A stretch of DNA of 64,000 bases, from the NCBI GenBank assembly GCA_965204725.1, contig OZ242005.1, positions 800,001 through 864,000 of the forward strand. Direction: 5' to 3'. Each line of letters starts with the position of its first letter. Position 1 is the first letter of the stretch. The position numbers and the translations under genes were made by a program. The notes under the pieces were generated by a model. The model searched no databases and was not told the DNA's origin. It was given only the letters and a program-made list of their open reading frames with translations. The stretch is from Candidatus Latescibacterota bacterium. Its GTDB lineage: Bacteria; Latescibacterota; UBA2968; UBA8231. This document shows, in pieces, positions 46,291 through 64,000 of the stretch.

Positions 46291-47645
46291 TCCTCCTGTT
46301 GCAAAATTTGCCGGCGCGAGCGCACATGCGCCAACCGCTGTGCCTCGCGCTCGTCGCCCTCGGCCAAAGCAGCGTACGTACGCCACTCGGCCCGCGCCCG
46401 CTCGGGATCTAATTTTTCTAAGGTCGAGGCGAGATGGAAACGCCACAGTGCCCGCTCCGGTTCGAGCCGGACGGCCTCTTCGCCAGCCTGCACGGCCGCG
46501 GCGAGCAAGCCCAACTGCCGATAGACGTCGCCTAGCGACGCAAAAAGCTCGGCGTGGTGTGGATGCGCGACCGTGGCTTGTTTGAACACCTGCACGGCCG
46601 TGCGCAGCCGCCGCTGATGCACGTACAAACCGCCCAACTTCAGGGCCGCGTCCCCTTCCGCGCCGCCCAACGCAATCGCCGCCTTAAACGCCTCTTCGGC
46701 CGCGGCGAGCGCGCCCGTGCGGCTGTGGACGATGCCGATACTCACTTGGACCGCCGCATCCCCGGGCTGTCGATTCGCCAGTTCGCCAAACGCGGCGAGT
46801 GCCGAGTCTAGCCGCCCGGCCGCGCTGTGGATCAAGCCGAGATAGCGATAGACCGGGTGCAAATCGGGATCGGCGGCCCGCGCCCGTTCAAACTGCGCCA
46901 AGGCACCGACGCCGTCCCCCTCCTCCCACAGCAGCCGCCCCAGCTCGTAGTGCAAGACAGCTTCCTCGCTGTCCCCGGCCAAACCTTCGACGAGCGTGGC
47001 GCGGGCGCGTTCCCATTGACCCGCCTCTCTGTAGAGCGCGGCGAGATCGGCCCGGATCCCCGTGTCTTTGGGCGCGGCATCGAGCACCTGCTGCATCAGC
47101 GTCCGCGCCTGTTCGGCCTGCCCCAACCGCACCTCTACGCGCGCTAGGTGGTAGCGCACCTCGGCCTGCTCGGGCGCAAGCTGTAGGGATGCGCGATAGG
47201 CCGCCTGCGCCGCGTGGAGGTTTTCCCGCAAGTGCCCTAGCGCCTGATAGGCGTGGCCCAGCCGTGCGTAAATCTGCGCCGACTGCTCGCCCCGGCGCAC
47301 CGCGTCCTGATAGGCGCGTAACGCCCCGCTATAGCGGCCTTGCGCGGCGAGGCTAAACCCCAGTTCGGCGTAGGCCCGCCCGTCGTCGGGGTGTGCTTCC
47401 ACGAGGCTGCGGTAGAGCGTTGTCGCGTCTTCGTACGCACCGCGCGCCACGTAGAGCGCGGCCAAGAGTGCCGGATCGAGTGCCTGCGCCCGCTCGGCGA
47501 GCCGCTCGGCCTGTGCCAATTCGGCCGGACTCAAGCTCCGCAGCGGCCTACCGCCGATCAGCTCCTGCGCTTGGCGCTGCGCGGTTGGCGCGTCCGGCGC
47601 GGTCGCGCACCCGGCCAACAAAAGCGCCGCGGTCAGCCCCTTCAC
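46287..47645 (-). CDS. TPR-repeat lipoprotein
   Basis: LLLAGC lipobox; many TPR units (AYAELG, YHLA, HYELG, YRYLG). Confidence 0.85.
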   Translation of the reverse strand: MKGLTAALLLAGCATAPDAPTAQRQAQELIGGRPLRSLSPAELAQAERLAERAQALDPALLAALYVARGAYEDATTLYRSLVEAHPDDGRAYAELGFSLAAQGRYSGALRAYQDAVRRGEQSAQIYARLGHAYQALGHLRENLHAAQAAYRASLQLAPEQAEVRYHLARVEVRLGQAEQARTLMQQVLDAAPKDTGIRADLAALYREAGQWERARATLVEGLAGDSEEAVLHYELGRLLWEEGDGVGALAQFERARAADPDLHPVYRYLGLIHSAAGRLDSALAAFGELANRQPGDAAVQVSIGIVHSRTGALAAAEEAFKAAIALGGAEGDAALKLGGLYVHQRRLRTAVQVFKQATVAHPHHAELFASLGDVYRQLGLLAAAVQAGEEAVRLEPERALWRFHLASTLEKLDPERARAEWRTYAALAEGDEREAQRLAHVRSRRQILQQEE

Positions 47646-49708
47646 TGGGTCTCCCCCTCCCTGAGCAACAAGTGCTGGTCGGCCTCAACATCCCGGTACA
47701 CATCAACCTGCCCGCTGGGCCACGCCACCTCAATGCGGTCGGCCTGCACCCGTTGCCCCAAACCAAATTCCAACTCCAAGCTGTTGCTGTTGCCAAAGCT
47801 GTAGCCAGACGCCACTTCGGCAAACTGCATTAGATCGCCGGCATGCACCCAGACCTTGGCGCCAATCCCGTCGCGATTGCTCTCGACGCCTTCCAGCGCT
47901 AGGACCAAGTAGCGATTGCCAAAGCCTTCGCTGCGATAGAACGCGTTGGGCCACTGGTCGCCGGGTTGAGCTCCGCCCACGGGCGCGTACAGGTCGAGGT
48001 CGCCATCGCGGTCGTAATCGGCAAAGGTCACGCCGTGCGATTTGCCCAAGTGCCCCAGCCCGGCGGCTTGGGTCGCATCGGCAAAGGTGCCGTCGGCTTG
48101 ATTGCGGAAAAGCACATCCGGCTCGCGCCGACCCATCTGCGGCCCGCCGTTGCCGAGGTAAATGTCTATATAGCCGTCGTTATCCACATCGCCGGGAACG
48201 CCGCTCATCGTGCCCAGCGCGCGCTCCAGTCCGGCGGCTTGGGTCACATCGGCGAAGGTGCCGTCGCCCCGATTGCGGAAAAGCACCGGCCGGTCACGTT
48301 GGCTCGTCGATTTGCCGGCGACGCGGTCGGCCAGCACTACCGAGTACTGGCTCCAGTTGCCCACGAAAATGTCCAGTGCCCCGTCGTTGTCGTAGTCGAG
48401 GACAAACGTTATAAAGCCGTCGATGTACTCGGCCCCTACGCCGGCCGCGGCCGTCTGATCGGCAAAGGTGCCGTCGCCCTGATTGCGGAAAAGCACATTC
48501 GGCTCGGTGAAATTGCACGCGTACAGATCGGGCCAACCGTCGCCGTCAAAGTCGCCCCACGCTGCGCTCAACGTCTGCCCCTTATGAGCCACCCCGGCGG
48601 CTTGGGCCACATCGGCAAAGGTGCCGTCGCCCCGGTTGCGGTAGAGCACATTGGTTGAGTCCCCGGTCGCGCCCGTGCCATTGGCTACGTAGAGGTCGAG
48701 GACGCCGTCGCGGTTGAAGTCGCTCCACGCCGCGCAAAAGCTCGACCCCGGATCGCCCGTGCCCGACGCTTGGGTCACATCGGCAAAGACGCCCCGGCCG
48801 TCGTTTTGGAACAGCGCGTTCACACCGCCGCCAAACCACCCGTCGCGCGTCACGTACAAATCGGCGTCACCGTCGTTGTCGTAATCGGCCGTCTGCACCC
48901 CAATTCCGCCCTCGGGCAGCACCAACCCGGCAGCCTGCGTCCGCTCGGCAAAGCGCGCGCCATCGTTGCGAAAGTACGCCAAGGCGGGATGGCCGATGAC
49001 GACCAAGTCGAGGTCGCCGTCCTCGTCGTAGTCGGCCCACGCGCTGGCGCGGCCCCCGTCGAACTTATCGACCCCCGCTTCGGCCCCGATTTCGCTAAAC
49101 CGCCCGCCGATTGCTTCCTGCGGCACGGCATCGGCAAAGGCCCCGGTTGCCGGCCGCCCTAATACCTCCTGCAACCACTTCCGATGCCAGCGCAACTCCA
49201 ACGGCTCGGGATGCAACGCCACGGCCTGCTGCAAAATCGAGTCAGCGCGCACATAGTCCTGCTGCCACAGCGCGGCAATCGCCGCCCAGTAGAGCGACTC
49301 GTACCCTTGGGGATCGGCGGCCAGTGCCCGCTGCAAATACCCTTCCGCGGCTGCGAACCGCCCCTCTTCGAGCGCCTCTTTCCCCCGCCCCAAAAACGTC
49401 TCCACTACCAAAGACCGCGCGGCCGTCAATTCAGGGTCTAGTGCCGCGGCCCGTTCTAGCAGCCCCACGCCTTCTTCGATCCGCCCCTGCACGAGCCGCA
49501 CCCTCCCGAGCTGCCAGTAGCCCTCGGCCGCCTCGGGCTCCAGCCGGACGCACTGAGCAAAGGCCCGCTCGGCCGCCCTGAGCCGATAGCGCTCCAACAA
49601 GTCCAAGCCCCGGTAGTACGATTCGCGGAACGCCGCGGAGCGGCCGGCCGGTTCTCGGCAGCCGCTCAGGGCGACGATGGCAAGGGTGGCAATCAGAACG
49701 ACGCGCAT
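47642..49708 (-). CDS. TPR + FG-GAP/CRTAC1 lipoprotein
   Basis: ALSGC lipobox, N-terminal TPRs, repeated LFRNxGDGTFADVT, SNRDGIGA, LEFGLG, WPSG. Confidence 0.9.
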   Translation of the reverse strand: MRVVLIATLAIVALSGCREPAGRSAAFRESYYRGLDLLERYRLRAAERAFAQCVRLEPEAAEGYWQLGRVRLVQGRIEEGVGLLERAAALDPELTAARSLVVETFLGRGKEALEEGRFAAAEGYLQRALAADPQGYESLYWAAIAALWQQDYVRADSILQQAVALHPEPLELRWHRKWLQEVLGRPATGAFADAVPQEAIGGRFSEIGAEAGVDKFDGGRASAWADYDEDGDLDLVVIGHPALAYFRNDGARFAERTQAAGLVLPEGGIGVQTADYDNDGDADLYVTRDGWFGGGVNALFQNDGRGVFADVTQASGTGDPGSSFCAAWSDFNRDGVLDLYVANGTGATGDSTNVLYRNRGDGTFADVAQAAGVAHKGQTLSAAWGDFDGDGWPDLYACNFTEPNVLFRNQGDGTFADQTAAAGVGAEYIDGFITFVLDYDNDGALDIFVGNWSQYSVVLADRVAGKSTSQRDRPVLFRNRGDGTFADVTQAAGLERALGTMSGVPGDVDNDGYIDIYLGNGGPQMGRREPDVLFRNQADGTFADATQAAGLGHLGKSHGVTFADYDRDGDLDLYAPVGGAQPGDQWPNAFYRSEGFGNRYLVLALEGVESNRDGIGAKVWVHAGDLMQFAEVASGYSFGNSNSLELEFGLGQRVQADRIEVAWPSGQVDVYRDVEADQHLLLREGETQ

Positions 49709-49804
49709 AGCAAAAACAACATCCGCTGTCTTTTGCCTGCTGTCAATTTCTAGTACGTTGTTGCGTTCCGTTTGCCATTCCCTCACCCATAAAGGAGCAC
49801 CACA

Positions 49805-50917
49805 ATGAGATGGACCCTCTTCCTCGCGACCTTCCTCTGGACGGCTTTGCCTAGCCCGGCCGCAGACCGCCCCCGCCTCGTACTCGATGGCCAAGCAGCC
49901 GTGTTAGTCGTCGATTTAGGCGGTGGCTCCATTGCCGATTTCCACCTCAAAAGCAACCCGCTCAACCCCCTGCAATGGGACTCTTGGTCCTTCGGCGACA
50001 CCCCGGACCAAGCACCGCCCATCGAGCCGCGCTCCATGGGGCACTTCCTCTGCCTCGACCGCTGGGGGCCGGCCACCCAAGCCGAGCAGGCCCACGGCAT
50101 GGGCTGGCACGGCGAGGCCACGCGCGTCTGGTGGACCCAAGATGCGGACATCCGCGCCGAGGACGGCTTTCTCCTAGCCGACCTGTCGGCCGAGTTGCCC
50201 CTAGCGGGCCTTGAGGTCGCACGCTCGATCCGCATGAGTCAGGAGCAGGCCGTCTTTGCGGTCGCCGAGGCCGTTACCAACACGCGCCATTTGGGCCGCG
50301 TGTACAACATCGTCCAGCACCCGACCATTGGCCCGCCCTTTTTGGACGAGAGCACCCGCGTTGACGCCAACGGCACGCGCGGCTTCATGCAGGAAACGCC
50401 CATGCCGACGCCAGAGGACCCGGAGGTGCGCTGGCCCTACGCCCGCAAAAAGGACGGCACCGAGGTCGATATGCGCCATTTGACGGATGACGCCGCCCCG
50501 GCCGTGGTGTCCTATATCGTCGAAGAGGAATACGGCTGGACCACGGCCATCAACGCCGGCCAAGGGCTGCTGATTGGCTATATATGGCCGATGGCGGATT
50601 ATCCGTGGTTCGACGCTTGGCGGCACGTCCGCGACGGCAAGCCCTTTGCTCGCGGCTTGGAGTTTGGCACCACGGGCCTCCACCAGCCCGGGCCGGTACT
50701 CGTCCAAAAGGGCCACATCTTTGGCCGGCAAATTTTGCGCTTCATCGATGCCGACGAGACCCAAGTTTTCACCTACGCCAACTTCCTCATGCCGATTCCC
50801 CCAGACTTCGCCGGCGTCGCTGATGTCGAATACGCCGCCGGGCAACTCGTGGTGCGCGAGGACGGCGGTCAGGGTCGAGAACTGACGATGGAAGTGGGGG
50901 CGCTTTTTGCGTGGTGA
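49805..50917 (+). CDS. Secreted hypothetical protein, possibly galactose-mutarotase-like fold
   Basis: AAGGAG RBS, signal peptide, GHFLCLDRWG...WHGEA, QHPTIG, ARGLEFG. Confidence 0.7.
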   Translation: MRWTLFLATFLWTALPSPAADRPRLVLDGQAAVLVVDLGGGSIADFHLKSNPLNPLQWDSWSFGDTPDQAPPIEPRSMGHFLCLDRWGPATQAEQAHGMGWHGEATRVWWTQDADIRAEDGFLLADLSAELPLAGLEVARSIRMSQEQAVFAVAEAVTNTRHLGRVYNIVQHPTIGPPFLDESTRVDANGTRGFMQETPMPTPEDPEVRWPYARKKDGTEVDMRHLTDDAAPAVVSYIVEEEYGWTTAINAGQGLLIGYIWPMADYPWFDAWRHVRDGKPFARGLEFGTTGLHQPGPVLVQKGHIFGRQILRFIDADETQVFTYANFLMPIPPDFAGVADVEYAAGQLVVREDGGQGRELTMEVGALFAW

Positions 50918-50949
50918 CCGTGCGCGCCAACGGCCCGGATTGCGTGGAG

Positions 50950-52149
50950 GCGGGCCCTTTTTACCTGCGTCGCACCAAGGAGGCGATGGTGTACTTCCCG
51001 GAGCCTCAGACGGACGGAACGTGGACTGCGAATCCGGTCTTCACCAAGCGCATCCCGCGCACCGCGAATTTCGCCATAGATGGCTCAGAGCTCGCGCTCT
51101 ACCAAAAGGTCACGCGGTTTGTGAAACAGCAGAGTGCGCGCGCTGCGGCCCAAGACGACGACCTGCGGGCTCGGGCGGTCGGTTTCCTGATGTCCCTGTA
51201 CCAGCGACGCCTTGCCTCTAGTGCCTACGCTATGCGGCGGTCGCTCGAAAACCGGGCAAGGCGTCTGGAGGATGGCCTCAAACGCGCTCAAGCACTCGTG
51301 CGGACCGCGCCCGACCTAGACGACTTGGAGGAATTGGAAGATCCCGAGCGCGAGCGTCTAGAGAAAGCACTAGAGGCCGTCACACTGGCCGACAACGCCG
51401 AACAGACCCGCCAAGAGATCGGCCAACTGCTCCAACTCGCTCAAGAGGCCAAGGGCATCGAAGCCTCGGGCCGCGAGACCAAACTCGGACACCTCCGCTC
51501 CATCATGCAGAAGGAGGGGTTCTTTGACCGGCCCGATCAGCGTCGGCTGCTTTTCACCGAGTTCAAGGACACCCTCGACCACCTGATGGAGCACTTGCAA
51601 GCCTGGGGCTTCCGCGTCGGCTGTATCCACGGCGGCATGAAGTCCGGCTCGCGCGACGAACCGGGGAGCCGGCTCTACACCGAACAGCAGTTCCGCGACG
51701 GCACGATCCAAGTCTTGGTCGCCACCGAGGCCGCCGGTGAAGGCATCAACCTTCAGTGCTGCCACATCCTCTTCAATTACGACATCCCTTGGAACCCCAA
51801 CCGGCTCGAACAGCGCATGGGCCGCATCCACCGCTACGGCCAGCGGCGCGATTGCCTAATTTTCAACTTCGTGGCCACCAACACCATTGAGGGGCGGGTG
51901 ATTCGCGAGCGGTTGTTCACTGTGGAGTTGGCAGACGACGGCGATCCCGTTCTGTGCGAGCCGGATGTCCTCGGCAATTTTAGCCCTACGGCTGGTCCGG
52001 GCGATCTACCGCCGGTAGCCGTGCGGTTCCCGTGGCACGAGGTCACCCAAGTCGCTCACTACTATCTGAGCGTTGACGCGATCAAGCAGCCGGTGGAAAT
52101 TCGGGAAGGCCAAAAGACCTCCGAAAAATGGAAAACACGCGATGAATGA
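50950..52149 (+). pseudogene. SNF2-family helicase remnant (Helicase-C part plus C-terminal tail, with deletions)
   Basis: LRRTKE, QRRLASS, LLFTEFKDT, ATEAAGEGINLQ, YDIPWNPNRLEQRMGRIHRYGQ; no Walker A/DEAH N-domain; abrupt sequence jumps after NTIEGRV and PPVA. Confidence 0.85.
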
Positions 52150-52150
52150 G
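52019..52150 (+). repeat. 132-bp direct repeat copy 1 (helicase 3' end)
   Basis: Matches 53703-53834 with 4 mismatches. Confidence 0.95.
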
Positions 52151-52164
52151 TTCTGAGGCGGACC

Positions 52165-53397
52165 ATGAACAAAACCGATTTGATCGAACTAATCCGCAAC
52201 GGCGAGGACTCAACCCTAGAGTTCAAGCGCGACGACATCCATAACTACGATCTAGCCAAGGAACTGGTAGCGTTCCTCAATCTCGAAGGCGGCACCGTCC
52301 TACTCGGGGTTGAGGACGATGGGCAGATTTCGGGAACATCCCGCGAGCGTCTTGAGGAGTGGGTTGCCGAACTCTGCCGCGTCAAAATTGAGCCACCGGT
52401 CGTGCCGCTGCTTTCATGGGCGAGAGAGGCCGAGCTGGGTCGGGATGTTCTCGCCATTGGCGTCACGCATGGTCCCGACAAGCCTTATGCCTGCATTCAC
52501 AAAGGCCACAAAACGTACTACATCCGCGTCAGCAACACCTCGCGGGAAGCGAGCCGCGAGGAACTTGAGAGAATGTACCAAGCGTCCGGTCGTTTGCGTT
52601 ACGGCCTAAAGCCGGCTCCAGGTGCCAGCTTCGAGGCATTCGATCGTGGCCGGCTGCGCGATTACCTGACCCGCGTTCTCAACGCGCCGGTCCCGGCTAA
52701 GGACGATCTAGACGGTTGGGGGACGCTATTGCGAAACATCAAGTTGATGACGGTGTCCGCAGGCCAGTTTGTCGCGACCATTGATGGCTTGCTTCTCTTC
52801 GGACTAACGCCGAATCGGTACGTGCCGCAATCGGGCATTCGAGCTGTTTGCTACGTGGGCCGGGAGCCGGATTATGCAACCCGTGCGGATGAGGATCTCA
52901 AAGGTCCTATGGTTCCGCTGTGCGATCCCGATAATGGAGAGTTTGTCAAGCTGGGGCTGGTAGATAAGGCGTGGGATTTCGTGCGGCGCAATACGACGCC
53001 TTCCGCCCATTTGGAAGGGGCGCGGCGGATTGACCGCTGGGAATTTCCCGAAGAAGCGGTGCGCGAGGCCGTGGTCAATGCCCTAGTACACCGCGATTAC
53101 AGCATCGCGGGAACGGACATCATGCTGGCCATATTCTCCGATCGCCTCGAAGTGGTCAGCCCGGGCCGCTTGCCCAACACGGTGACGCCGGCCGGGATGC
53201 GATTGGGGCAGCGCTACGCCCGCAATCAGACGCTAGTCAACGTGATGCGCGACTACGGCTATGTGGATGCTCGTGGCATGGGCGTACGGAATAAGATCAT
53301 TCCCGGCATGTTGGCCCACAACGGCACCGAGCCGGACTTGATTGAGGAAGAGAACCGCTTCATCGTGCGCCTGTGGAAGGAGCGTAGCACAGTGTAA
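52165..53397 (+). CDS. AlbA_2 (Schlafen-like) + HATPase_c_4/RecG-C-like protein, copy 1
   Basis: GEDSTLEFK, AFLNLEGG..LLGVEDDG, EAVVNALVHRDY, DRLEVVSPGRLP, RGMGV. Confidence 0.9.
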   Translation: MNKTDLIELIRNGEDSTLEFKRDDIHNYDLAKELVAFLNLEGGTVLLGVEDDGQISGTSRERLEEWVAELCRVKIEPPVVPLLSWAREAELGRDVLAIGVTHGPDKPYACIHKGHKTYYIRVSNTSREASREELERMYQASGRLRYGLKPAPGASFEAFDRGRLRDYLTRVLNAPVPAKDDLDGWGTLLRNIKLMTVSAGQFVATIDGLLLFGLTPNRYVPQSGIRAVCYVGREPDYATRADEDLKGPMVPLCDPDNGEFVKLGLVDKAWDFVRRNTTPSAHLEGARRIDRWEFPEEAVREAVVNALVHRDYSIAGTDIMLAIFSDRLEVVSPGRLPNTVTPAGMRLGQRYARNQTLVNVMRDYGYVDARGMGVRNKIIPGMLAHNGTEPDLIEEENRFIVRLWKERSTV

Positions 53398-53702
53398 TGG
53401 TAAGGCGACAAACGACAGGGCTCGGCCTTTCGACGATTTCATCCGCTACGAACCGCTACGCGAAGTCAATATCCCTCGTCAGATGGGAGTTCCCCATCCC
53501 GAAAGTCAACCGCTTCAGCTTTATAAGTTTCTGATGACGCTTTCAAGACAGCTAGATCAGGGAAGATGCACGATGTGTCTAGGTTGCTCAGATTACGCCG
53601 ATACTTTTCGTGTGGTGCGCGTCGAGAAAATAGAGGTATTCTTGCGGTTCATTGTGACCCACTGCGCCAGCGCGCCAGTGCTTCAGGAGCCTATCGAAAA
53701 TC

Positions 53703-53834
53703 CCGTGCGGTTCCCGTGGCACGAGGTCACCCAAGTCGCCCACTACTATCTGAGCGTTGACGCGCTCAAGCAGCCGGTGGAAATTCGGGAAGGTCAAAAG
53801 ACCTCCGAAAAATGGAAAACACGCGATAAATGAG
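53703..53834 (+). repeat. 132-bp direct repeat copy 2 (second helicase tail)
   Basis: Helicase-tail-like reading IVTHCASAPVLQEPIENPVRFPWHEV extends back to about 53651. Confidence 0.95.
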
Positions 53835-53843
53835 AGGACCAAA

Positions 53844-56543
53844 ATGGAGACCATATCGAGTGTGAGGGCTAAAGACTCCATCGCCTTGCCAGCGGGTGCT
53901 GTATTTCATCGGTGCGCCCTCCAAGTAAACCCACACAGCTACGGCGGAACCTTCCGAGGGCAGCAAACCAGCGGCGATGCCCGCGAGCACGCGAAAGCCA
54001 TTGTCGAGCAGGCGGTCGAAATCGGCGTCTCCGTGCTCGCCATCACCGATCACAACGACGCGAGCGGAGTCGCCGCCTTCCAAGAAGCCGCCCAACATAC
54101 CAACGTCACGATATTCCCCGGTTTCGAGCTTTCTTCGTATGAAGGCATTCACATCCTGTGCATCTATCCGCCGGATACTAGCCAGAATCGTTTGAATCGG
54201 TTTCTCGGCAAGTTCGAAATTCAAGAAACCGGCTCTTCGGCGAATCTGTCGAGCGAGTCGTTCGACGAGGTGCTCGCAATGGTCCAGAAGCAGGGCGGAG
54301 TCGCCATCGCCGCGCACGTGACAAACGCCAAAGGGCTTTTCAAAGTGCTCAAAGGCCAAGCTCGGATCAACGCATGGTGTGCTAAAGACCTGCTCGCGAT
54401 CCAGATCCCCGGGCCTGTCGCCGCCCTGCCCTCCGAGGTACGCCCAATTATCCAGAACGAGAATCCAGACTATCGGCGAAACCACCCCGCAGATAAAAAT
54501 CTAGCCGTAGCTGCGATCAACGCGAAGGATGTCGTTAAGCCGAGCGATCTGAAAGACCCTTCGGCTACATGCTGGATCAAGATGTCCGAGATCACGATTG
54601 AGGGGCTACGGCAGGCTTTTCTCGATCCCGGGTCGAGAATTCGACTGGCCAGCGACTCCCCGCCCGACGAACATGCCGAACTCGTTTCGCTGACTTGGGA
54701 AGGTGGCTTTCTGGATGGTGCATCCATTCGCTTCAATCCGAACATGAATGTCTTAGTCGGCGGGCGCGGCACCGGCAAATCAACCATCATCGAGAGCCTG
54801 CGCTACGCGCTCGGATTGGAGCCTATCGGCGAGGAGGCAGACAAGGCCCACAAAGGAATCGTGCGCCAAGTGCTTCGCAACGGGACGAAAGTTTCGCTTA
54901 TCGTGTGCTGCAACCGCCCGACGCCACGCGAGTACCGCATTGAGCGGACCGTTCCAAACCCGCCCGTGGTGCGCGATGAATGCGGCAAGCTATCGAACCT
55001 GCTTCCAAAAGAGGTGCTCCCTCGCGTCGAGGTGTACGGGCAGCACGAAATCTCCGAACTCACCAAGAGTCCCGAAAAGCTCACGCGCCTTCTCGACCGC
55101 TTCGTCGAGCGAGACCATTCCTCGGCCCAGCGCAAGGCCGATCTCCGTCGAGAACTCGAGAAGACGCGGCGGTCCATAGTAGAGGTATGCGCCGAGCTCC
55201 AGCAGATCGAGGATCGTCTAGCCGCCCTGCCAAGACTTGAGGAGACCCTGCAACGCTTTCAGGAAGCAGGTCTTGAAGATCGCCTGCGCGAACAGAGCTT
55301 GCTCGTGCGCGAGGAGCGAGTGCTCAATTCGATGCCCAAGCGCCTACAGAATTTCCGCGAATGCCTCGATCTTCTCCGCCAAGAGCTCCCGATCGATCGG
55401 GTGTTCTTGTCTGAAAGGGCACTCCAAGATCTGCCGGGTAAGAAAATTCTTGCGAGCGGCAATGACATATTGGAAAGCCTGAGCACGGATCTCGATAAAT
55501 TGGCGGGTCAATTTGCAGAAGCACTAAAGCAAGCAGATGAAGGGATCGCCGAAATCCGCTCTCGCTGGAACGAGCGCCAGAAAAAGGTTCAAGCCGCCTA
55601 TGAGAAAATTCTGCGCGAGCTTCAGAAATCGGCAATAGACGGGCAAGAGTTCATTCGTCTTAGGCACGAAATCGAGAACCTTCGCCCGCTCGGGGAACGC
55701 AAGTCCTTATTGAAACGGTTAGAAAAAGAACTCCTCGAACGACGGCGCACACTGCTTGCCGAATGGGAAGAGATCAAAGCGGAGGAGTTCAGGAATTTGG
55801 ACAGAGCCGCGCAAGAAGTCAGCAAGGAGCTGCTCTCTCGCGTCCAAGTGGAGGTCGCCGCCGCAGGTGACCGCGAGCCGCTGCTCCGGTTGCTCCGCGA
55901 CGAGATCGGTGGCCGTCTCTCCGAGGCATTAGCCATCCTCGCCCAAGAGGAGGACTTCTCTCTGCCGCAATTCGTCGATAGCTGTCGGACGGGCGCGGAT
56001 GCCGTTCACCGAGCCTACAAAATTCCACCAGCCCAAGCGCAGCGGCTTGCCGAGGCGTCGGCCGAAACTTTGATGCTCGTTGAAGAGCTGGAACTTTCCC
56101 CCGCGACCACAATCCAGCTCAACACGGCTCCTTCCGACAAACCGCCGTCATGGCAAGCACTCGAAGCACTCTCAACGGGCCAAAAAGCGACCGCTGTGTT
56201 GCTGCTCCTCCTGCTAGAGTCCGATGCTCCGCTCATCGTCGATCAGCCCGAGGACGACCTCGACAACCGATTCATCACCGAAGGGGTGGTTCCCAAAATG
56301 CGCGAGGAGAAATGCCGGCGCCAATTCGTTTTCTCGACCCACAACGCCAACATCTTGGTGCTTGGGGACGCCGAACTGATCGTTGGCCTCACTGCCACTG
56401 GAGGTGGAGACGAGGGGAATGCCTACATTGATCCCAAACATATAGGATCCATTGATGCACACCCGGTGCGGGAAATGGTTGAGGAGATTCTCGAAGGTGG
56501 CAAGGATGCTTTTGAGCGTCGTCGCCGGAAATACGGATTCTGA
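53844..56543 (+). CDS. PHP-domain + SMC/AAA ATPase (Ppl/TrlF-like)
   Basis: AITDHN, PGFELSS, AAHV PHP motifs; GGRGTGKST Walker A; long coiled coil; LSTGQK signature; IVDQPEDDLDN; STHNAN. Confidence 0.9.
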   Translation: METISSVRAKDSIALPAGAVFHRCALQVNPHSYGGTFRGQQTSGDAREHAKAIVEQAVEIGVSVLAITDHNDASGVAAFQEAAQHTNVTIFPGFELSSYEGIHILCIYPPDTSQNRLNRFLGKFEIQETGSSANLSSESFDEVLAMVQKQGGVAIAAHVTNAKGLFKVLKGQARINAWCAKDLLAIQIPGPVAALPSEVRPIIQNENPDYRRNHPADKNLAVAAINAKDVVKPSDLKDPSATCWIKMSEITIEGLRQAFLDPGSRIRLASDSPPDEHAELVSLTWEGGFLDGASIRFNPNMNVLVGGRGTGKSTIIESLRYALGLEPIGEEADKAHKGIVRQVLRNGTKVSLIVCCNRPTPREYRIERTVPNPPVVRDECGKLSNLLPKEVLPRVEVYGQHEISELTKSPEKLTRLLDRFVERDHSSAQRKADLRRELEKTRRSIVEVCAELQQIEDRLAALPRLEETLQRFQEAGLEDRLREQSLLVREERVLNSMPKRLQNFRECLDLLRQELPIDRVFLSERALQDLPGKKILASGNDILESLSTDLDKLAGQFAEALKQADEGIAEIRSRWNERQKKVQAAYEKILRELQKSAIDGQEFIRLRHEIENLRPLGERKSLLKRLEKELLERRRTLLAEWEEIKAEEFRNLDRAAQEVSKELLSRVQVEVAAAGDREPLLRLLRDEIGGRLSEALAILAQEEDFSLPQFVDSCRTGADAVHRAYKIPPAQAQRLAEASAETLMLVEELELSPATTIQLNTAPSDKPPSWQALEALSTGQKATAVLLLLLLESDAPLIVDQPEDDLDNRFITEGVVPKMREEKCRRQFVFSTHNANILVLGDAELIVGLTATGGGDEGNAYIDPKHIGSIDAHPVREMVEEILEGGKDAFERRRRKYGF

Positions 56544-56551
56544 GGTGAACC

Positions 56552-57787
56552 ATGAACAAAACTGATTTGATCGAACTAATCCGCAACGGTGAGAGTTCCG
56601 GCGTGGAGTTCAAGCGCTCTGACGTTCTCCCCGAGCGACTCGCCACTGAAATCGCCGCCCTACTCAACCTAGAAGGTGGTCACATTCTCCTCGGCGTCGA
56701 GGACGATGGATCGGTTTCTGGTCTCACCCGCGAGCCGAGCGAAGTCGAAGAATGGGTGATGGAAACTGCGCGTACCCACATCCTTCCGGCGACGATCCCC
56801 TACTGGGAGACCGTGGACTGGGGAGAGGGGAAAACCGTCGGCATAGTATCGCTTCCTAGCGATGCGCCGGATAAGCCGTACAAGGCTAAACGTGGCAAAG
56901 CTTGGGGGACGTTCGTGCGTGTTGGTAGTACTTCACGAGAGGCAAGTCGCGATGAAGAAGGACGCCTCTACCAGTCAGCCCATATCATGCGCTATGACAT
57001 CAAGCCCGTACTTGAGACGGGACTGGAGGAACTCGATCTGGACCGAATCGGGAACTACTTTCGTGTCATCCAGAAGCGCGATGTGCCAACGGCGCAGAAT
57101 ACCGAGGAATGGCGTCGAGTTCTTGTGAGTATTGATCTTCTTGCGGAAGCGGCGGGAACGACTGTCGGAACAGTCGCGGGCTTGCTCCTCTTTGGCAAGA
57201 ACCCGAACCGCCGGCTGCCACAATCGGGCATTACGGCGGTGGCGTTCCCAGAAGATGAAAAGGAGTACAATACTGTAGATGAAGAACTGATTCGAGGTCC
57301 TCTAGTTTCGATGTTATCGGCAAAAAAAAGAGTTGTGGATAAGGGGGTCATTGACCGAGCGGTAGATTTCGTGGCCCGCAACATGGGCTCTGTCGCGTGG
57401 CTCGATGGTGGAAGGAGACGCCGCAAGAAGTCGCTTCCACGGGCCGCGATTCGTGAGACCATCGTGAATGCAGTTTCACACCGCGATTATACGCTCACCG
57501 GCACAGACATCGAAGTCTCCTTATATCGCGATCGCCTAGAAGTAATCTCGCCTGGGCGTCTTCCTAATGGAGTGACGATAGAGAAGATGAAGGAAGGTTT
57601 ACGGGCCGCCAGAAATGAACTGCTAAAAGAAATCCTTCGAGATTACGGCTATGTCGATCATTTCGGCATGGGTGTACGCAATCGGATTATTAGGGCTATG
57701 CGCGACCACAACGGCACCGAGCCGGACCTGATTGAGGAAGAGAACCGCTTCATCGTGCGCCTGTGGAAGGAGCCGAAACCATCGTGA
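56552..57787 (+). CDS. AlbA_2 (Schlafen-like) + HATPase_c_4/RecG-C-like protein, copy 2
   Basis: GESSGVEFK, LNLEGG..LLGVEDDG, ETIVNAVSHRDY, DRLEVISPGRLP, FGMGV. Confidence 0.9.
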   Translation: MNKTDLIELIRNGESSGVEFKRSDVLPERLATEIAALLNLEGGHILLGVEDDGSVSGLTREPSEVEEWVMETARTHILPATIPYWETVDWGEGKTVGIVSLPSDAPDKPYKAKRGKAWGTFVRVGSTSREASRDEEGRLYQSAHIMRYDIKPVLETGLEELDLDRIGNYFRVIQKRDVPTAQNTEEWRRVLVSIDLLAEAAGTTVGTVAGLLLFGKNPNRRLPQSGITAVAFPEDEKEYNTVDEELIRGPLVSMLSAKKRVVDKGVIDRAVDFVARNMGSVAWLDGGRRRRKKSLPRAAIRETIVNAVSHRDYTLTGTDIEVSLYRDRLEVISPGRLPNGVTIEKMKEGLRAARNELLKEILRDYGYVDHFGMGVRNRIIRAMRDHNGTEPDLIEEENRFIVRLWKEPKPS

Positions 57788-57823
57788 TCGTCCGCACTTG
57801 CAAATGCTAATGGGATTAAAGAG

Positions 57824-58138
57824 ATGCTCGAACAAGCGATTTTGGACGACATTATTCGCCGCATTGTAGAGGTGGCTCAACCGGAAAAGATCATTCTCTT
57901 TGGGTCGGCCGCACGGGGCGACCTAGGACCGAACAGCGACGTGGACTTGCTCATCATAAAGGAGGGAGCGGACGCACTTGAACTCATGGGCGATATATAT
58001 ATGAATCTCGATGGCGTCGGTGCAGCCGTCGATGCTATCGTCGTCACGCCCGACGATGTAGAGCGGTATAAGGACACCCACGCGCTGGTGATAAAGCCCG
58101 CTCTACAGGAAGGAAAGGTGGTATATGAAGCCGCCTGA
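57824..58138 (+). CDS. Minimal nucleotidyltransferase (MNT) antitoxin
   Basis: ILFGSAARGD...SDVDLLII; overlaps the HEPN start. Confidence 0.9.
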   Translation: MLEQAILDDIIRRIVEVAQPEKIILFGSAARGDLGPNSDVDLLIIKEGADALELMGDIYMNLDGVGAAVDAIVVTPDDVERYKDTHALVIKPALQEGKVVYEAA

Positions 58139-58514
58139 ACGCTTCCCTCCCGAGGACCCGCGGGAGTGGATGAATCGCGCCAGAAGCAATCTGGTTCGGG
58201 CAAAAGACCGCACTCCCGGTGCCTATCTCGAAGACTTGTGCTTTGATGCACAGCAAGCCGCTGAGAAAGCGATTAAGGCGGTGATGCTCAAGCGCGGCAT
58301 CACCTTTCCCTACGTGCATGATTTAGCCCGATTGCTTTCCCTGCTCAAGGAAGCAGGCGAAACGATCCCGGACGCTGTCGGACAGGCCAGAAAGCTCACT
58401 CGATTTGCCACAGTCACTCGCTACCCTATAGCCCAAGCCGTCACCGAACAGCATTATCTGGAGGCACTAGCCATCGCCGAAGCTGTCGTCCGCTGGGCCG
58501 AGGAACTCATATAG
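58125..58514 (+). CDS. HEPN-domain protein
   Basis: CFDAQQAAEKAIKA, HDLARL, TRYP; coupled to MNT. Confidence 0.9.
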   Translation: MKPPERFPPEDPREWMNRARSNLVRAKDRTPGAYLEDLCFDAQQAAEKAIKAVMLKRGITFPYVHDLARLLSLLKEAGETIPDAVGQARKLTRFATVTRYPIAQAVTEQHYLEALAIAEAVVRWAEELI

Positions 58515-58612
58515 CGAATTCTCCAGACAGTGTCTAGAGAATCTTCGCTGGGCAGCGTCGCCGCGCACTTTCCACTTCCTTGGTCTGTGCAAATGCTAAT
58601 GGGATTGAAGAT

Positions 58613-58990
58613 ATGCTCAAACAAGCGATTCTGGACGACATTATTCGCCGCATTGTGGACGTCGCCCAACCGGAGAAGATCATACTCTTCGGATCGGCTG
58701 CTCGCGGCGACATGAACCGCCATAGCGATGTCGATCTGCTCATTATAAAAGAATGCGCGAACCCGCTTGAACTCATGGGGCAGATTTATCAGAACCTGCA
58801 CAGGGTTGGCGCAGCAGTTGACGCCATCGTCGTCACGCCCCAGTCGGTCGAGCGCTACAAGGACACCCACGCATTGGTCATCAAACCAGCCCTACGCGAG
58901 GGAAAAGTGGTGTATGAAGCCGCCAGCGAAAATTGGCAACTCAAACGCGATGGCACTGAACGTGGCATCGTCGAAATCACGGGGGAATGA
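58613..58990 (+). CDS. Second MNT, with an unrelated C-terminal extension
   Basis: ILFGSAARGD...SDVDLLII; after VVYEAA continues SENWQLKRDGTERGIVEITGE. Confidence 0.8.
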   Translation: MLKQAILDDIIRRIVDVAQPEKIILFGSAARGDMNRHSDVDLLIIKECANPLELMGQIYQNLHRVGAAVDAIVVTPQSVERYKDTHALVIKPALREGKVVYEAASENWQLKRDGTERGIVEITGE

Positions 58991-58992
58991 TC

Positions 58993-59196
58993 ATGATTGC
59001 AAACGATCGCGAACTCGACGTCACCCTCGGACGAATCGCGCATTTTCAGCGTCAAATAGCCCATCTACGCAATATGGAAACTCATCCTGAAAATTACCGC
59101 GGCTCCGTGTCGGGATTTCTCGCTGAGGTCGACCGAATGCAGTTGGAGGTCCGTGAATATCTCAGCATGCATCCGGCCGAACTGGAGCGCGGGTGA
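58993..59196 (+). CDS. Small helical hypothetical protein, putative TA partner
   Basis: MIANDRELDVTLGRI...LAEVDRMQLEVREYL; coupled to the upstream stop. Confidence 0.7.
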   Translation: MIANDRELDVTLGRIAHFQRQIAHLRNMETHPENYRGSVSGFLAEVDRMQLEVREYLSMHPAELERG

Positions 59197-59271
59197 GCAC
59201 TTGATGACGCCGAACCGACAGCTCAGCCGTGCCAGCACTATCCTGCCTCGGCAGGAACGGAAAGAGAATTC

Positions 59272-61847
59272 ATGATCCCCCGCGAATGCAAACGTCTAGC
59301 TGAAGTTGATTTTCCCATTGCTGAGGTTTCTAAGCATGCGGCGCGGGAGAAGTCGATTCGGCATGGGCATCCGAGTACGTTGCACTTGTGGTGGGCGCGG
59401 CGGCCGTTGGCCTCGTCGCGGGCGGTGTTGCTGGCGTTGCTGCTGCCAGACCCGTGCGACGCGCACTGCCCGGAGGGCTTTAAGCAGCAAGCGCGGAACA
59501 TTCTGCGCGAGGTGCGGCAACCACCGGCGAATGATGCGGGACTGCGGCAGGGGTTGCTGGCGTTCATCGCCAACTTTGCCAACTGGAAGAATGCGGCGGA
59601 TCGCACCCATCTCAACGTGAGCCGGGCGCTGGTGCAAGCGGCGCATGGCGAGGAGCCGCCGCTCGTGGTCGATCCGTTTGCCGGCGGCGGGTCGATTCCG
59701 CTGGAGGCGTTGCGGCTGGGGTGCGAGGCGTTTGCCAGCGATCTAAATCCGGTGGCGTGTCTGATTCTCAAGGTGATGCTGGAGGATATTCCGCGGCACG
59801 GGCCGGGGCTGGCCGAGGAGTTGCGTCGGGTCGGCGGCGAAATTAAGCGGCAGGCCGAGCGGGAGTTGGCCGATCTATATCCCAAGGACGCGGACGGGGC
59901 CACGCCGATTGCCTATTTGTGGGCGCGCACGGTGCGTTGCGAAGCGCCCAACTGCGGCGCGGAGATTCCCCTGATGCGTTCGTTTTGGTTGTGCAAGAAG
60001 GCCAAGCGCAAGCGGGCGTTGCGGCATCGAGTGGAGCGTGGCGAGGGGGCGGCACCGAGCGTCGAGTTTGAGGTGGTTGAGCCGCAGGCGGATAGAGAGG
60101 TGCGCGGCGGCACGGTGGCGCGAGCGCGGGCTACGTGTTTGTGTTGCGGCGTGGTGCTGCCGCCGGAGCGGGTGCGGGCGCAGCTTGCGGCTCAACGGGG
60201 CGGCGCGGATGTGGTTTTTGACGCGGAGGGACAGCGGACGGGTGGGGCGCGGATGACGGCGGTGGTGACGTTGCGGCCCGGCGAGACGGGGCGGCATTAT
60301 CGGCTGCCGACGGACGCGGATTATGCGGCGGTGCGAAAGGCGCAGGAGCGGGTGGCGCAGGTTCTGGAGGAATGGGAACGAGGCGGGCGGCAGGGGCTTT
60401 GCCCGGTGCCGGATGAGCCGTTGCCGCCGATCGGGACGCTGGGCTTTCGTGTGCAGCGATATGGCATGATGCAGTGGGGGGATTTATTTACGGCGCGGCA
60501 GAAGGTGGCGTTGGTGGCGTTGGGAAAGTTGACGAAGAATTCATCAAGCGAGCAGCATATTATTCTCTTTCTTGCGTTGGCAATTTCGCGTTTTATGGAT
60601 GATTTCTCATCGCTTGTGCGTTGGATGGATAGAGAGACGCCTGCCGCAACATACACCCTACAGGCACTGCCTATAAAATGGGATTTTTGTGAGATTGACC
60701 CGTTCGACAAGGCGTCATGGAGTCTGACAAGTTCGATAGATTGGGTAGCAGCTCCGTCGTCTTTGCCCACAAAACGACGGAAGGATGGGAAGCGTTGCTC
60801 TCCGGCATGATTCGCGGCGGCTGGACGATTACCGGCTCTTGGCCGATCGCTACAGAGAGGCCAAGTCGCCCACGCGCCCGCGATTCCGCCGCCCTCGCCA
60901 CCAGCGTCCACCTCATTTGCCGCCCCCGCCCCGAAGACGCCCCCATCGGCGATTGGGCCGATGTCCTGCGCGAACTGCCAACCCGCGTCGCCGAGTGGAT
61001 CGACCGCTTGCAAGCCGAAGGCATCCGCGGTGCCGATCTGGTCTTCGCCTGCATCGGCCCGGCCCTCGAAATTTTCAGCCGCTACCGCGCCGTCGAAACC
61101 GCCGAAGGCGACATAATCGGCCTGCCCGATTATCTGGAGAAAGTCTGGGAGGTCGTCGGCCGCGCCGCCCTGCAACAAGTGCTCGGCACGGCCGAGGCGC
61201 AAACGCACGGCGCATTGGAAGCGGACGCCCGCCTGACCGCCCTCTTCCTGTGGACGCTCCAGAGCACAACCCCTGTTGCAGAGAATCAGGAACAAGACGA
61301 CGAGGCCGACGAAGAAGCCGTCGCCAAAGCCGCGGCCACGGGATTCGCGCTCCCCTTCGACGTCGTGCGCCGCTTCGCCCAGCCCATGGGCATTGACCTC
61401 GCCGCCCAAACCGACCGCATCATCGGCCAAGAAAAGGGCGTCGTCCGCCTCCTACCCGTAGCCGAGCGCGCCAAAAAGCTCTTCGGCGAAGACGGCGCGG
61501 CCGCCGCGGCCACTTACCTCGAAAGCGGAGCCAACGCGCAACAGACGCTATTCCCCGCCTATCAGGAAGGCGCACCCACCCTCGTCTGGGAGCCTCCACC
61601 GCGCTACGATGAATCCCCCGACGCCCCCCTTTCCGCCACTCTCGGCGACACCACCCTCGACCGCGTCCACACCGCCATGCTACTCCAATCCAGCGGCCAC
61701 GCCACCGCCCTGCGGACGCTAATCAGCGCCGAGCAAGATCGCGGCCCCGACTTCCTCCGCCTTGCCAACGCCCTATCCGCCCTCTACCCTCAAGGCTCCC
61801 CCGAAAAACGCCTCCTCGACGCCATGCTGCTGGCGGTGCCGAGGTGA
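59272..61847 (+). pseudogene. DUF1156 adenine DNA methylase with Zn ribbon, internal deletion/frameshift at about 60750
   Basis: LHLWWARRPL, DPFAGGGSIPLEA, DLNPVA, ARTVRC..PNCG; second frame VVFAHKTTEGWE, GSWPI, GADL; no DPPY motif in either part. Confidence 0.85.
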
Positions 61848-61989
61848 CGCGCTATTCAGAGATCAGGCGTACAACGGAGATTTGCCATAGGAGGTTGACG
61901 CAAAGTAAGAATTCTGGTTGAGTACTCTAAAAATCGAATCATACAAGGAGGCAACATGAATAGAATTCCAGAAAGGAGAGGTCCACTCC

Positions 61990-62883
61990 ATGGCCGATGA
62001 CATCACCGCACAGCCGGTCCCACAAAAGAATCCAGATACGAGCGATTCAATCGCGGTCGAGTGGCTTAATTCCAAGCTCGCTGAAATTGAGAAGCATACC
62101 TGTATGGATGCGCTGACAATTTTCGGTCCGATTATGGAGTCAGTCGATCACCGCGTTAGGTTGGCGATCGAAAGGGTCCCGAAACGCCGCGAAGGTTCGC
62201 TCGTGATCATTGATACAACTGGTGGCATTGTCGAGGTCGCCGAACGCATTGTTACCACGCTCAGGCATTACTACAAAGAGGTGAAGTTTCTCATTCCCGA
62301 TAAGGCGATGTCGGCGGGGACGGTGCTCGTGATGTCTGGGGACGCAATTTTGATGGATTACTTTTCTTGTTTGGGGCCGGTTGATCCCCAGTTATATATA
62401 GAAGACAAACCAATCCCAATATCGGTTCTTTCTTATCTTGAGCAATACGAACGCTTCGTCAAAAAAGCCGAAGAAGGCACCCTGACAAGTGAGGACTTGG
62501 TGCTACTTCAGAAACTTGATGCTGCTGATTTGCGTCAATACGAACTGGCAGCCGAGCTATCAGTTCGACTCATTCAACATTGGCTTGTAAAGTACAAATT
62601 CAAGGATTGGTCAACACACAGTTCTACAGGGAAAACAGTTACCCAAGAAGAAAAGGAGAAGCGTGCGGAAGAAATTGCCCAAGCACTTAACGATCAAGAA
62701 AGATGGGGCACTCATGGACGTGGAATTAACCGAGATGTTCTTGCTGAATTGAAGCTCAAAATTGATGACTTGGAAGCCGATCCTACGTTGAGCAACTTGA
62801 TCAAGGAATACTTCTGGTTTTTCGGGGATCTTGCATTCAAGGAAGAAGCAAATAGTCTAGTCCATAACCGTTATTTCCCCTAA
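61990..62883 (+). CDS. SDH-family ClpP-fold serine protease
   Basis: DTTGG, IPDKAMSAGT, LGPVDPQ, THGRGI; low GC. Confidence 0.85.
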   Translation: MADDITAQPVPQKNPDTSDSIAVEWLNSKLAEIEKHTCMDALTIFGPIMESVDHRVRLAIERVPKRREGSLVIIDTTGGIVEVAERIVTTLRHYYKEVKFLIPDKAMSAGTVLVMSGDAILMDYFSCLGPVDPQLYIEDKPIPISVLSYLEQYERFVKKAEEGTLTSEDLVLLQKLDAADLRQYELAAELSVRLIQHWLVKYKFKDWSTHSSTGKTVTQEEKEKRAEEIAQALNDQERWGTHGRGINRDVLAELKLKIDDLEADPTLSNLIKEYFWFFGDLAFKEEANSLVHNRYFP

Positions 62884-63807: not shown

Positions 63808-63821
63808 TAAAAGGAGGCCCC

Positions 63822-64000
63822 ATGCCAAGAAAAGACCTACTTATGCCCATGCCCACCGAAGAGCAGATCGCAAAGAACCCGGCGGTTGATCCTAAGATCG
63901 TCAAAGAGGCACAGCAAATGCGCCGAGAGCTCGAAGAATTGGGAGTGTGGGAGGATAGCGGCAGTCGGGTGAGTAATCCCTTTGAAACCAAGCCGACCTC
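63822..64000 (+). CDS. Small hypothetical protein (runs off the window)
   Basis: AAGGAGG RBS, then MPRKDLLMPMPTEEQIAKNPAVDPKIVKEAQQMRRELEELGV, open to the window end. Confidence 0.65.
   Translation, partial: MPRKDLLMPMPTEEQIAKNPAVDPKIVKEAQQMRRELEELGVWEDSGSRVSNPFETKPT

Follow-up and report, generated by a model that had tools for sequence, protein, structure and literature searches.

Near-identical ends of two diverged TrlG genes in a Candidatus Latescibacterota bacterium probably mark joins made by homologous recombination

We analysed a 64,000-nt stretch of a Candidatus Latescibacterota bacterium (GCA_965204725.1, contig OZ242005.1, positions 800,001-864,000; hereafter the window, with all positions counted within it), in which two genes of the TrlG type lie in the same orientation, the second directly behind a TrlF gene. 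The two share nearly identical DNA at both ends and have diverged in between. These ends are probably the boundaries at which ordinary homologous recombination joins diverged classes of TrlG, here called A and B, to a TrlF-bearing locus. The source is a metagenome-assembled genome (MAG) of 5.43 Mb in 2 contigs with 9.97% estimated contamination, and the runs that contain the stretch include sponge metagenomes. Related genomes, loci and public runs are coded with the letters G, L and X, respectively; the records of relatives are titled Candidatus Latescibacterota. The two genes, TrlF and the near-identical ends, which we call arms, are as follows (RBS, ribosome-binding site; HTH, helix-turn-helix).

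52165..53397, + strand: TrlG-A, class A, 410 aa, prokaryotic Schlafen-HisKinase-HTH protein without a TrlF of its own
56552..57787, + strand: TrlG-B, class B, 411 aa, starting 8 nt past the TrlF stop (coupled)
53844..56543, + strand: TrlF, 899 aa, PHP phosphoesterase fused to an SMC/ABC-type ATPase
52151..52206, + strand: 5' arm of copy A, made up of codons 1-14 and, in front of them, a 14-nt relic of the TrlF stop/RBS region
56538..56593, + strand: 5' arm of copy B, comprising the TrlF stop codon, the RBS and TrlG-B codons 1-14
53316..53383, + strand: 3' arm of copy A, with a widely conserved HNGTEPD block at 53317-53337 and the putative minimal B-to-A conversion tract at 53341-53382
57706..57773, + strand: 3' arm of copy B, with the donor-type sequence of the putative conversion tract

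Both open reading frames (ORFs) are intact and of near-equal length. Their proteins are identical at 201 of 406 aligned residues (49.5%) and their DNA identity is 0.55 overall, whereas the 5' blocks (52151-52206 and 56538-56593) differ at only 4 of 56 nt and the 3' blocks (53316-53383 and 57706-57773) at 1 of 68 nt. Coordinates and mismatch counts were exactly those given in the initial annotation of this DNA, and its description of the core as only moderately similar was likewise borne out. The 5' block begins 14 nt upstream of the ATG and, in copy B, includes the TrlF stop codon. No additional copy of either block was present anywhere in the 5.43-Mb genome. We then scored how often the two genes use the same codon at identical degenerate amino-acid positions, with Fisher's test and with simulation on the genes' own codon usage. 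Such positions shared their codon in 11 of 13 cases for the 5' block and 20 of 21 for the 3' block, against 66 of 159 for the core (Fisher p = 7e-8). Codon usage predicted 5.3 for the 5' block (p = 0.001), 8.8 for the 3' block (none of 200,000 simulations was as high as observed) and 58.2 for the core (p = 0.11). The proportion of synonymous differences (pS) was 0.24 in the 5' block and 0.075 in the 3' block, and was saturated, at 0.75, in the core. The contrast between ends and core is neither a matter of chance nor accounted for by amino-acid conservation alone. The initial annotation had proposed that conserved arms allow whole cores to be exchanged; synonymous divergence that is uniform along the gene, which it had named as speaking against this, was not found.

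Relatives were then compared. A TrlG-like gene (E <= 1e-60) was found in 18 of the 31 genomes of the genus, and TrlF (E <= 1e-100) in 26 of the 132 genomes of the taxonomic class. The TrlF genes of the window, G027 and G019 are 0.92-0.94 identical as DNA, uniformly over 900 codons, and are followed by a class A gene in G019 and by class B genes in the window and G027. Similarly, in family f2 the TrlF genes of G044 and G037 (0.91 identical as DNA, again uniformly) carry class A and class B, respectively. The cores of class A and class B are only 0.51-0.54 identical as DNA despite the 0.91-0.92 identity of the TrlF genes. Among 23 module pairs with TrlF proteins at least 0.82 identical, TrlG identity was 0.80-0.97 in 15 and 0.48-0.52 in 8, with none between. 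Different cores do occur between the same arms in relatives, as the proposal of core exchange called for.

Clustering groups the arms according to TrlF lineage and the cores according to class. In the TrlF clade of the window, the 5' arms (codons 1-14) of class A and class B genes are 0.90-1.00 identical (1.00 for G079 and G009), compared with 0.60-0.67 for class A and 0.81 for class B when the same class is compared across TrlF clades. Cores of the same class are 0.70-0.75 identical across clades, which matches the divergence of TrlF between these clades (0.71). For the 3' arm, class A and class B genes are 0.82-0.86 identical in the window's clade and 0.86-0.91 in the second clade, and same-class genes are 0.67-0.82 identical across clades. 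In the window's clade, identity falls where the 5' arm ends, near nt 40 of TrlG; in the second clade, this left drop is near position -20. On the right side, identity recovers in the second clade at about nt 1100, in the 3' arm, and continues into a shared terminator.

Class A corresponds to one side of a single branch of the TrlG tree. Its changes numbered 4 on the TrlF tree of 23 modules and, with metagenome loci included (65 modules), 7 on the TrlF tree compared with 1 on the TrlG tree, the 65-module trees being FastTree trees only and containing kin that are not independent. Both classes are present in two families of the taxonomic class and in metagenomes, class B at 74% amino-acid identity in family f2 and class A at 84% in G019 and 73-77% in f2. 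As a separate observation, the module at locus L047 (G079, family f4) has TrlF and TrlG proteins 89% and 90% identical, respectively, to those of G019 in the window's genus, which points to recent transfer across families.

Joins were also found within the gene. Segment trees placed breakpoints near codon columns 20, 120, 220 and 360-400, and in a test of the pairwise homoplasy index (PHI) type none of 1000 permutations was as low as observed, in each of 3 allele sets. A third allele type, present in G027_1, G023, G013, G002 and G007, is B-like in columns 21-120 (identity to copy B 0.73-0.93; placed within the B clade at 92/95 support), resembles neither A nor B in columns 121-220, and is 0.87-0.97 identical to TrlG-A of the window in columns 221-400. 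TrlG-A groups with G019 in columns 21-220 (100/99) and with G027_1 in columns 221-360 (100/99), where G019 falls outside; the trees are incongruent, and TrlG-A too is a recombinant. The 5' arm is the end of a TrlF-linked block of 2.7-kb homology that is common to all alleles of the clade.

The 3' arm, on the other hand, is composite. HNGTEPDL(I) is encoded by the first 21-26 nt, and the 26-nt block occurs exactly in 21 genome stretches, 12 of which are titled as other phyla or classes (including Binatia, Spirochaetia, Armatimonadetes, Thermoanaerobaculia and Planctomycetales), in genes 44-74% identical as protein. Copies A and B agree at every position of the 42-nt tract at 53341-53382, even where it uses the non-preferred codons ATT and GAA. 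Compared with either G019 or G027_1, this tract is changed at 10 of 42 nt, and four amino acids are changed with them. All 13 of its degenerate codons are the same in A and B, compared with 5.6 expected (p = 1e-5). The last 4 codons of copy A and the DNA downstream of them are G019-like again. The tract reads as a short patch of gene conversion, 42 to about 66 nt long, and its direction would be from B to A because it resembles the B-type genes seen in G027 and G009. The two copies of G027, where the tandem layout is the same, are only 0.82 identical in the 3' arm, so that the patch would be recent and private to the window's lineage.

The locus is arranged in the order HmaA'-R1a, 5' arm-TrlG-A-3' arm, a 305-nt spacer, R1b, TrlF, 5' arm-TrlG-B-3' arm, MNT-HEPN-MNT and HmaB, with the following elements around the genes described above.

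50911..52149, + strand: HmaA', 412-aa frame with Pfam Helicase_C, remnant of an Hma/DUF499-type, BREX-related SNF2 helicase
52019..52150, + strand: R1a, 132-nt 3' end of HmaA', repeated directly as R1b
53398..53702, + strand: spacer after TrlG-A, no recognised gene
53703..53834, + strand: R1b, orphan repeat of the HmaA 3' end, immediately in front of TrlF
57824-58138, 58125-58514 and 58580-58990, + strand: MNT, HEPN and MNT genes, from Pfam
59272..61847, + strand: HmaB, DUF1156 methyltransferase, split into overlapping frames 59272-60810 and 60717-61847

The A cassette is bounded by repeats. R1a and R1b, absent from the list of features in the initial annotation, are 97% identical over 132 nt. 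R1a adjoins the 5' arm of copy A, and its left edge coincides with the internal deletion junction of HmaA'; on the R1b side, homology to HmaA of other genomes begins at 53654. The spacer is shared piecewise with G027 (92-95%) and G019 (87%), and a 163-aa frame across it gave no Pfam match. The 14 nt upstream of the copy A ATG agree with the TrlF stop/intergenic region of G019 at 13 of 14 positions; copy A would therefore once have been preceded by TrlF, as its G019 counterpart still is. A similar TrlF relic precedes TrlG of G023, G013 and G002, all of which lack TrlF there. Outside these genomes, in a record titled Planctomycetales (L070, 6620-6718), only the last 33 TrlF codons (76% identical) stand directly before a full TrlG, a further case of TrlF loss leaving a relic, like that of copy A.

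Contigs of 4 public runs, in which rare variants are dropped, were aligned to 50800-58600. In run X5, one 6490-nt contig (record 28) passes directly from 52110 to 53795. The 1684 nt that it skips equal the R1a-R1b spacing exactly, with 33 letters that fit either side; the contig differs from the window at 0 of 219 nt on the left side and 173 of 4793 nt on the right side. Run X5 contains a related strain with the layout HmaA'-R1-TrlF-TrlG-B and no A cassette. A contig of run X1 (record 5, 1620 nt; 52113-53732) starts in R1a, crosses TrlG-A and the spacer and ends in R1b, as in the window; the tandem layout was found again in X1 and X13 as well as in G027. In addition, contigs of X5 and X13 go back 789 nt, which equals the spacing of the MNT repeat; they are consistent with an extra copy of this 789-nt unit, which varies in copy number. 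Two further contig joints between the copies (52239/52240 to 56866/56867 and 53187 to 57698) were rejected as pieces of other alleles, with sides of only 21-27 letters that were out of register. A degenerate 42-nt pattern of the 5' arm retrieved 0 stretches from metagenome contigs, a result that is uninformative either way.

We propose that the left boundary of exchange would consist of TrlF, the TrlF stop/RBS region and TrlG codons 1-14, and the right boundary of the last 25-35 TrlG codons or of genes further downstream. The flanks would be homogenised within a lineage, and the cores would be too different to recombine. TrlG-A would have lost its own TrlF and come to be bounded by the 132-nt HmaA-tail repeats, with both classes now in tandem, and the resident copies would recently have exchanged a 3' patch of 42-66 nt, from B to A. 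RecA-type recombination after DNA uptake would be the likely route, phage pressure may keep both classes, and TrlG-A presumably works with the single TrlF; we infer the direction and order of these events. Several observations weigh against this reading or narrow it. Of 5 and 60 fixed TrlF differences, 0 are shared, and none of the TrlF residues follows the class of TrlG in both clades; this fits free exchange and gives no sign of co-adaptation of TrlF and TrlG. In the window's clade, the DNA downstream of class A and class B genes is only 20-50% identical past the stop; the right crossover there may be situated in the MNT gene rather than in the 3' arm. In genomes other than this one, the A-B identity of the 3' arm in that clade is no higher than identity within a class, and the first part of this arm is attributable to a conserved motif combined with GC-rich codon choice, for which recombination is not needed. 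Furthermore, the class A label was taken from TrlG identity and only afterwards counted on the TrlF tree. Finally, in the contigs of the four runs, from which rare variants are dropped, there was no convincing recombinant between the resident copies.

That the ends are alike merely through selection on the protein's N-terminal catalytic region and C-terminal HNGTEPDLI...RLWKE motif, on translation initiation and on GC-rich codon choice, with no recombination, is unlikely. Such selection would account for the exact 26-nt block in 21 genome stretches, 12 of them titled as other phyla or classes, and for the invariance of H386, N387, P391, R399 and R403, and the 5' arm does contain the RBS and start codon. 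However, the right two thirds of the 3' arm already contradict this explanation: the 42-nt tract there is identical in A and B yet 10 of 42 nt off the closest relatives of copy A, and 13 of 13 degenerate codons are the same against 5.6 expected. The 0.82 identity of the G027 pair in the 3' arm and the clustering of arms by TrlF lineage rather than class argue in the same direction. It is also unlikely that the locus is a dedicated device, in which the arms are maintained as recombination sites for hsdS-like swapping of cores and the tandem A+B arrangement is selected to widen specificity. The finding of different cores on the same arms in two TrlF clades, the recurrent reassortment of classes, the recurrence of the tandem layout in G027, X1 and X13, and the purifying selection on copy A despite its loss of TrlF would all suit such a device. 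But the arms are direct repeats, so that exchange between the resident copies deletes DNA and gives no reversible switching. No site-specific recombinase, reverse transcriptase or inverted repeat was found at the TrlG genes (2 inverted pairs were found, neither at the arms), breakpoints also lie inside the gene, and the 3' arm has not been kept identical in G027. Direct repeats with no adjoining recombinase found therefore favour ordinary homologous recombination over a dedicated switch. The proposal in the initial annotation holds up for the most part, in that the same ends carry different cores, recurrently; exchange of whole cores by the arms alone is too narrow a description, given the breakpoints in mid-gene. 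Likewise, its conserved terminal arms hold for the 5' arm, which is shared within the TrlF clade, but the 68-nt identity at the 3' end is no standing feature, as seen in G027. Nor are the arms likely to be kept up as a device, and motif and codon bias account for part of one of them.

A recent tandem duplication whose middle diverged fast under positive selection would explain why the genes are adjacent, directly oriented and of near-equal length. It is scarcely credible, being already contradicted by the close counterparts that both cores have in other genomes; moreover, the core pS is saturated at 0.75, and the ratio of nonsynonymous to synonymous divergence (dN/dS) within classes is 0.11-0.15. 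An assembly artefact, in which A-type and B-type strain haplotypes were stitched in tandem at shared repeats, is very improbable. The MAG does carry 9.97% contamination, the joins do lie at repeats and a strain without the A cassette does exist, yet the independently assembled G027 has the same order of TrlG, spacer, R1, TrlF and TrlG, record 5 of X1 spans R1a, TrlG-A, the spacer and R1b, and the genome is in 2 contigs. Recombination at the ends thus remains the reading we prefer. A further-reaching version of it, which we offer tentatively as a possibility, holds that the TrlG cores are interchangeable specificity cassettes under ancient balanced polymorphism. Classes A and B would predate the split of the TrlF clades and both have been kept in each, the end of TrlF and the TrlG C-terminus would serve as crossover zones, and both classes would here have become fixed in tandem behind one TrlF, like permanent heterozygosity at an immune locus.

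With regard to the proteins, both genes are predicted, from sequence and from a structure model, to be TrlG homologues that combine a Schlafen-type nuclease, a HisKinase-like domain and an HTH. The SLFN_AlbA_2 domain (PF04326, cut-off 25.3 bits) scored 66.9 bits in A and 53.8 bits in B and spans residues 14-129 in A, about 14-130 in both; HATPase_c_4 (PF13749, cut-off 26 bits) scored 70.8 and 79.2 bits, respectively, and spans 316-403 in A, about 316-404 in both. Both copies contain E14-x4-E19-x-K21, which corresponds to the Ex4(E/D)xK catalytic motif as defined in PMC13056530. E14, E19 and K21 are invariant across 32 aligned sequences, as are H386, N387, P391, R399 and R403. An AlphaFold2 model of TrlG-B had a mean predicted local distance difference test score (pLDDT) of 85.9. 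Its top Foldseek match was 3lmm, over the full length (E 3e-18); the N-terminal domain matched the SAMD9 and SLFN tRNase domains (E 7e-5 to 1e-3) and the remainder the GHKL kinases PDK2, HK853 and CpxA (E 4e-3 to 1e-2). Neither TrlG copy matched any NCBIfam model. Both copies are under purifying selection (dN/dS 0.11-0.26). Within classes, dN/dS was 0.11-0.15 for TrlG and 0.19-0.34 for TrlF, the artefactual value of the TrlF pair G044/G053, caused by an extrapolated start, being excluded, and TrlG-A gave 0.26 against G019 and 0.155 against G027_1. The TrlG-B protein is 95% identical to that of G027 and 91% to that of G009.

TrlF matched the NCBIfam model TrlF_fam_ATP (NF045780) with 531.7 bits (cut-off 350 bits) over model positions 2-944 of 944, and its Pfam domains are PHP, AAA_23 and AAA_21. 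Assignment to Ppl (Ppl_antiphage, NF042955) was rejected, with 215.1 bits against a cut-off of 1000 bits. For all 23 full-length TrlF ORFs in the fetched genome loci, a TrlG start lies within -10 to +60 nt of the stop, and a TrlG-like gene lies directly downstream of 46 of the 61 metagenome TrlF genes that have at least 1300 nt of downstream sequence. No TrlG-like gene was detectable with the window proteins in the other 15 of these loci (L098, L113, L116, L125, L126, L133, L136, L138, L141, L142, L147, L148, L149, L158 and L159), where the partners may be too diverged for detection or different genes. A Pfam scan revealed no trlR-like small regulator before TrlF, no search aimed at trlR homologues having been made. 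TrlF-TrlG is a two-gene module that probably acts in abortive-infection defence.

Known systems offer partial parallels. In the shuffling of type I restriction-modification specificity (hsdS) domains, variable recognition modules lie between conserved stretches and are newly combined when copies recombine; hsdS switches typically have inverted repeats, often with a site-specific recombinase, and reversibly swap DNA-recognition domains of known function. In contrast, the TrlG genes have direct repeats, no recombinase was seen there, and no role is assigned to the core. In the orphan toxin/immunity cassettes of contact-dependent inhibition (CDI) and Rhs loci, a short copy of the 3' end of the upstream gene precedes the displaced cassette and provides homology for replacement or deletion. 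Similarly, the 132-nt HmaA tail R1b precedes the displaced cassette here; unlike in CDI/Rhs loci, the repeated piece is from an unrelated neighbour gene, and a complete gene, not just a C-terminal tip, makes up the cassette. Ppl resembles TrlF in joining a PHP domain to an SMC/ABC-type ATPase but is listed as a system of one gene; a TrlG neighbour accompanies TrlF in 23 of 23 genome-locus cases.

The closest described relative is the trlR-trlF-trlG (TRL) operon of Photorhabdus laumondii. According to the available passages of PMC7554251, its TrlG has AlbA_2 at 14-128 together with HATPase_c_4 and is misannotated as RecG-like, and its TrlF is a large PHP protein annotated as 'histidinol phosphatase'. 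According to the same passages, growth arrest at 36 degrees C is relieved by loss-of-function trlG mutations, as would fit a toxic effector. The two-gene core trlF-trlG is the same in both. They differ in that the window has two trlG genes of different classes for one trlF, placed in an Hma island, with no trlR-like gene seen upstream of TrlF; neither allelic classes nor recombining ends are reported in the available passages of PMC7554251. For prokaryotic Schlafens in general, the accessible part of PMC13056530 names HisKinase and HisKinase-HTH fusions as the most frequent architectures (34.0% and 19.2% of 5,930 proteins) and places 69.6% within 10 kb of a known defence gene; there, one DUF262 fusion and one Ig-like fusion were shown to defend, whereas no defence was shown for the HisKinase fusions tested. 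Shared with its HisKinase-HTH type are, as far as that part goes, the Slfn domain, the Ex4(E/D)xK motif and the fusion to HisKinase-like and HTH domains. The words ATPase, operon, PHP and recombination do not occur in PMC13056530. In the passages available from PMC12839542, Schlafen-HK-wHTH and HEPN/MNT genes are described as 'backup effectors' nested in BREX and DUF499-centred, BREX-related (Hma) loci, in at least 1017 taxa. The same nesting is seen here: genes for a helicase, a DUF1156 methylase and a DUF499 ATPase surround those for Schlafen-HK-wHTH and HEPN-MNT. Those passages treat the nested genes as linked effectors and describe neither a TrlF partner nor reassortment of classes, and the word PHP is absent from the paper. 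The Hma system is described in PMC8565338, in whose passages the words Schlafen, Ppl and embedded do not appear.

Taken together, the TrlF-TrlG pair, the Schlafen-HisKinase-HTH architecture and the nesting in Hma/BREX-related loci are already described. The class dimorphism, its reassortment relative to TrlF and the anatomy of the breakpoints were not found in the literature searched, supplementary tables not being covered. The mechanism is ordinary and its principle familiar from restriction-modification and polymorphic-toxin loci, the gain being a well-resolved new case. TrlF-TrlG is a widespread named pair of putative phage defence, in which a Schlafen partner belonging to old classes has repeatedly been re-paired with near-identical TrlF. 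The locus shows where the joins lie and so provides a handle on whether the core sets phage range or trigger. It also offers a natural-population record of how a defence island is rebuilt, by gain or loss of a cassette at 132-nt repeats, by copy-number change of a 789-nt unit and by what would be a conversion patch of 42-66 nt.

The surrounding Hma system appears broken and decayed from its reading frames, whereas the inserted TrlFG and MNT-HEPN genes are intact. HmaA' matched the PADLOC HmaA model with 205 bits at positions 320-637 of 1176 only and lacks about 300 N-terminal residues and internal parts; its 412-aa frame compares with an intact HmaA ORF of 1152 aa at the same place in G009. 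The two frames of HmaB gave PADLOC scores of 235 and 80 bits and matched Pfam DUF1156, and in relatives the two HmaB parts lie 300-400 nt apart. No DUF499 ATPase (HmaC) was found within the window. A remnant match to PF04465 (DUF499) lies in a 448-aa frame about 5.8 kb beyond the window end; at three other loci of the genome, the frames are 1113-1153 aa long. A 300-nt repeat, D1 (57799-58098 and 58588-58887; 78% identical, 789 nt apart), accompanies the two MNT genes that flank one HEPN gene, and G027 has two MNT-HEPN units. An Rfam scan of 49500-64000 matched no family, and a promoter/terminator scan stayed below shuffled controls (1 vs 2.9 and 3 vs 8.9) and yielded no operon boundaries.

Orphan copies of the first 31-84 codons of HmaB (84-98% identical as protein to HmaB of the window) were seen between cassettes at loci L018, L019, L020, L026 and L036, which belong to the relatives G027, G023, G013, G010 and G014, respectively. 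Like the HmaA-tail repeat, these orphan starts look like footprints of cassette exchange at gene ends. Downstream of HmaB, a low-GC patch at 61900-63100 (0.46-0.48 compared with about 0.63) contains a gene for an SDH-type ClpP-like protease (61990-62883). It is followed by an IS4/5 (insertion sequence) DDE transposase gene (62983-63798), the only mobile-element gene nearby, 5 kb from the TrlG genes. Just upstream of the island, two large FG-GAP/ASPIC-UnbV repeat proteins are encoded at 43145-44758 and 47642-49894 (- strand), one of them with tetratricopeptide repeats.

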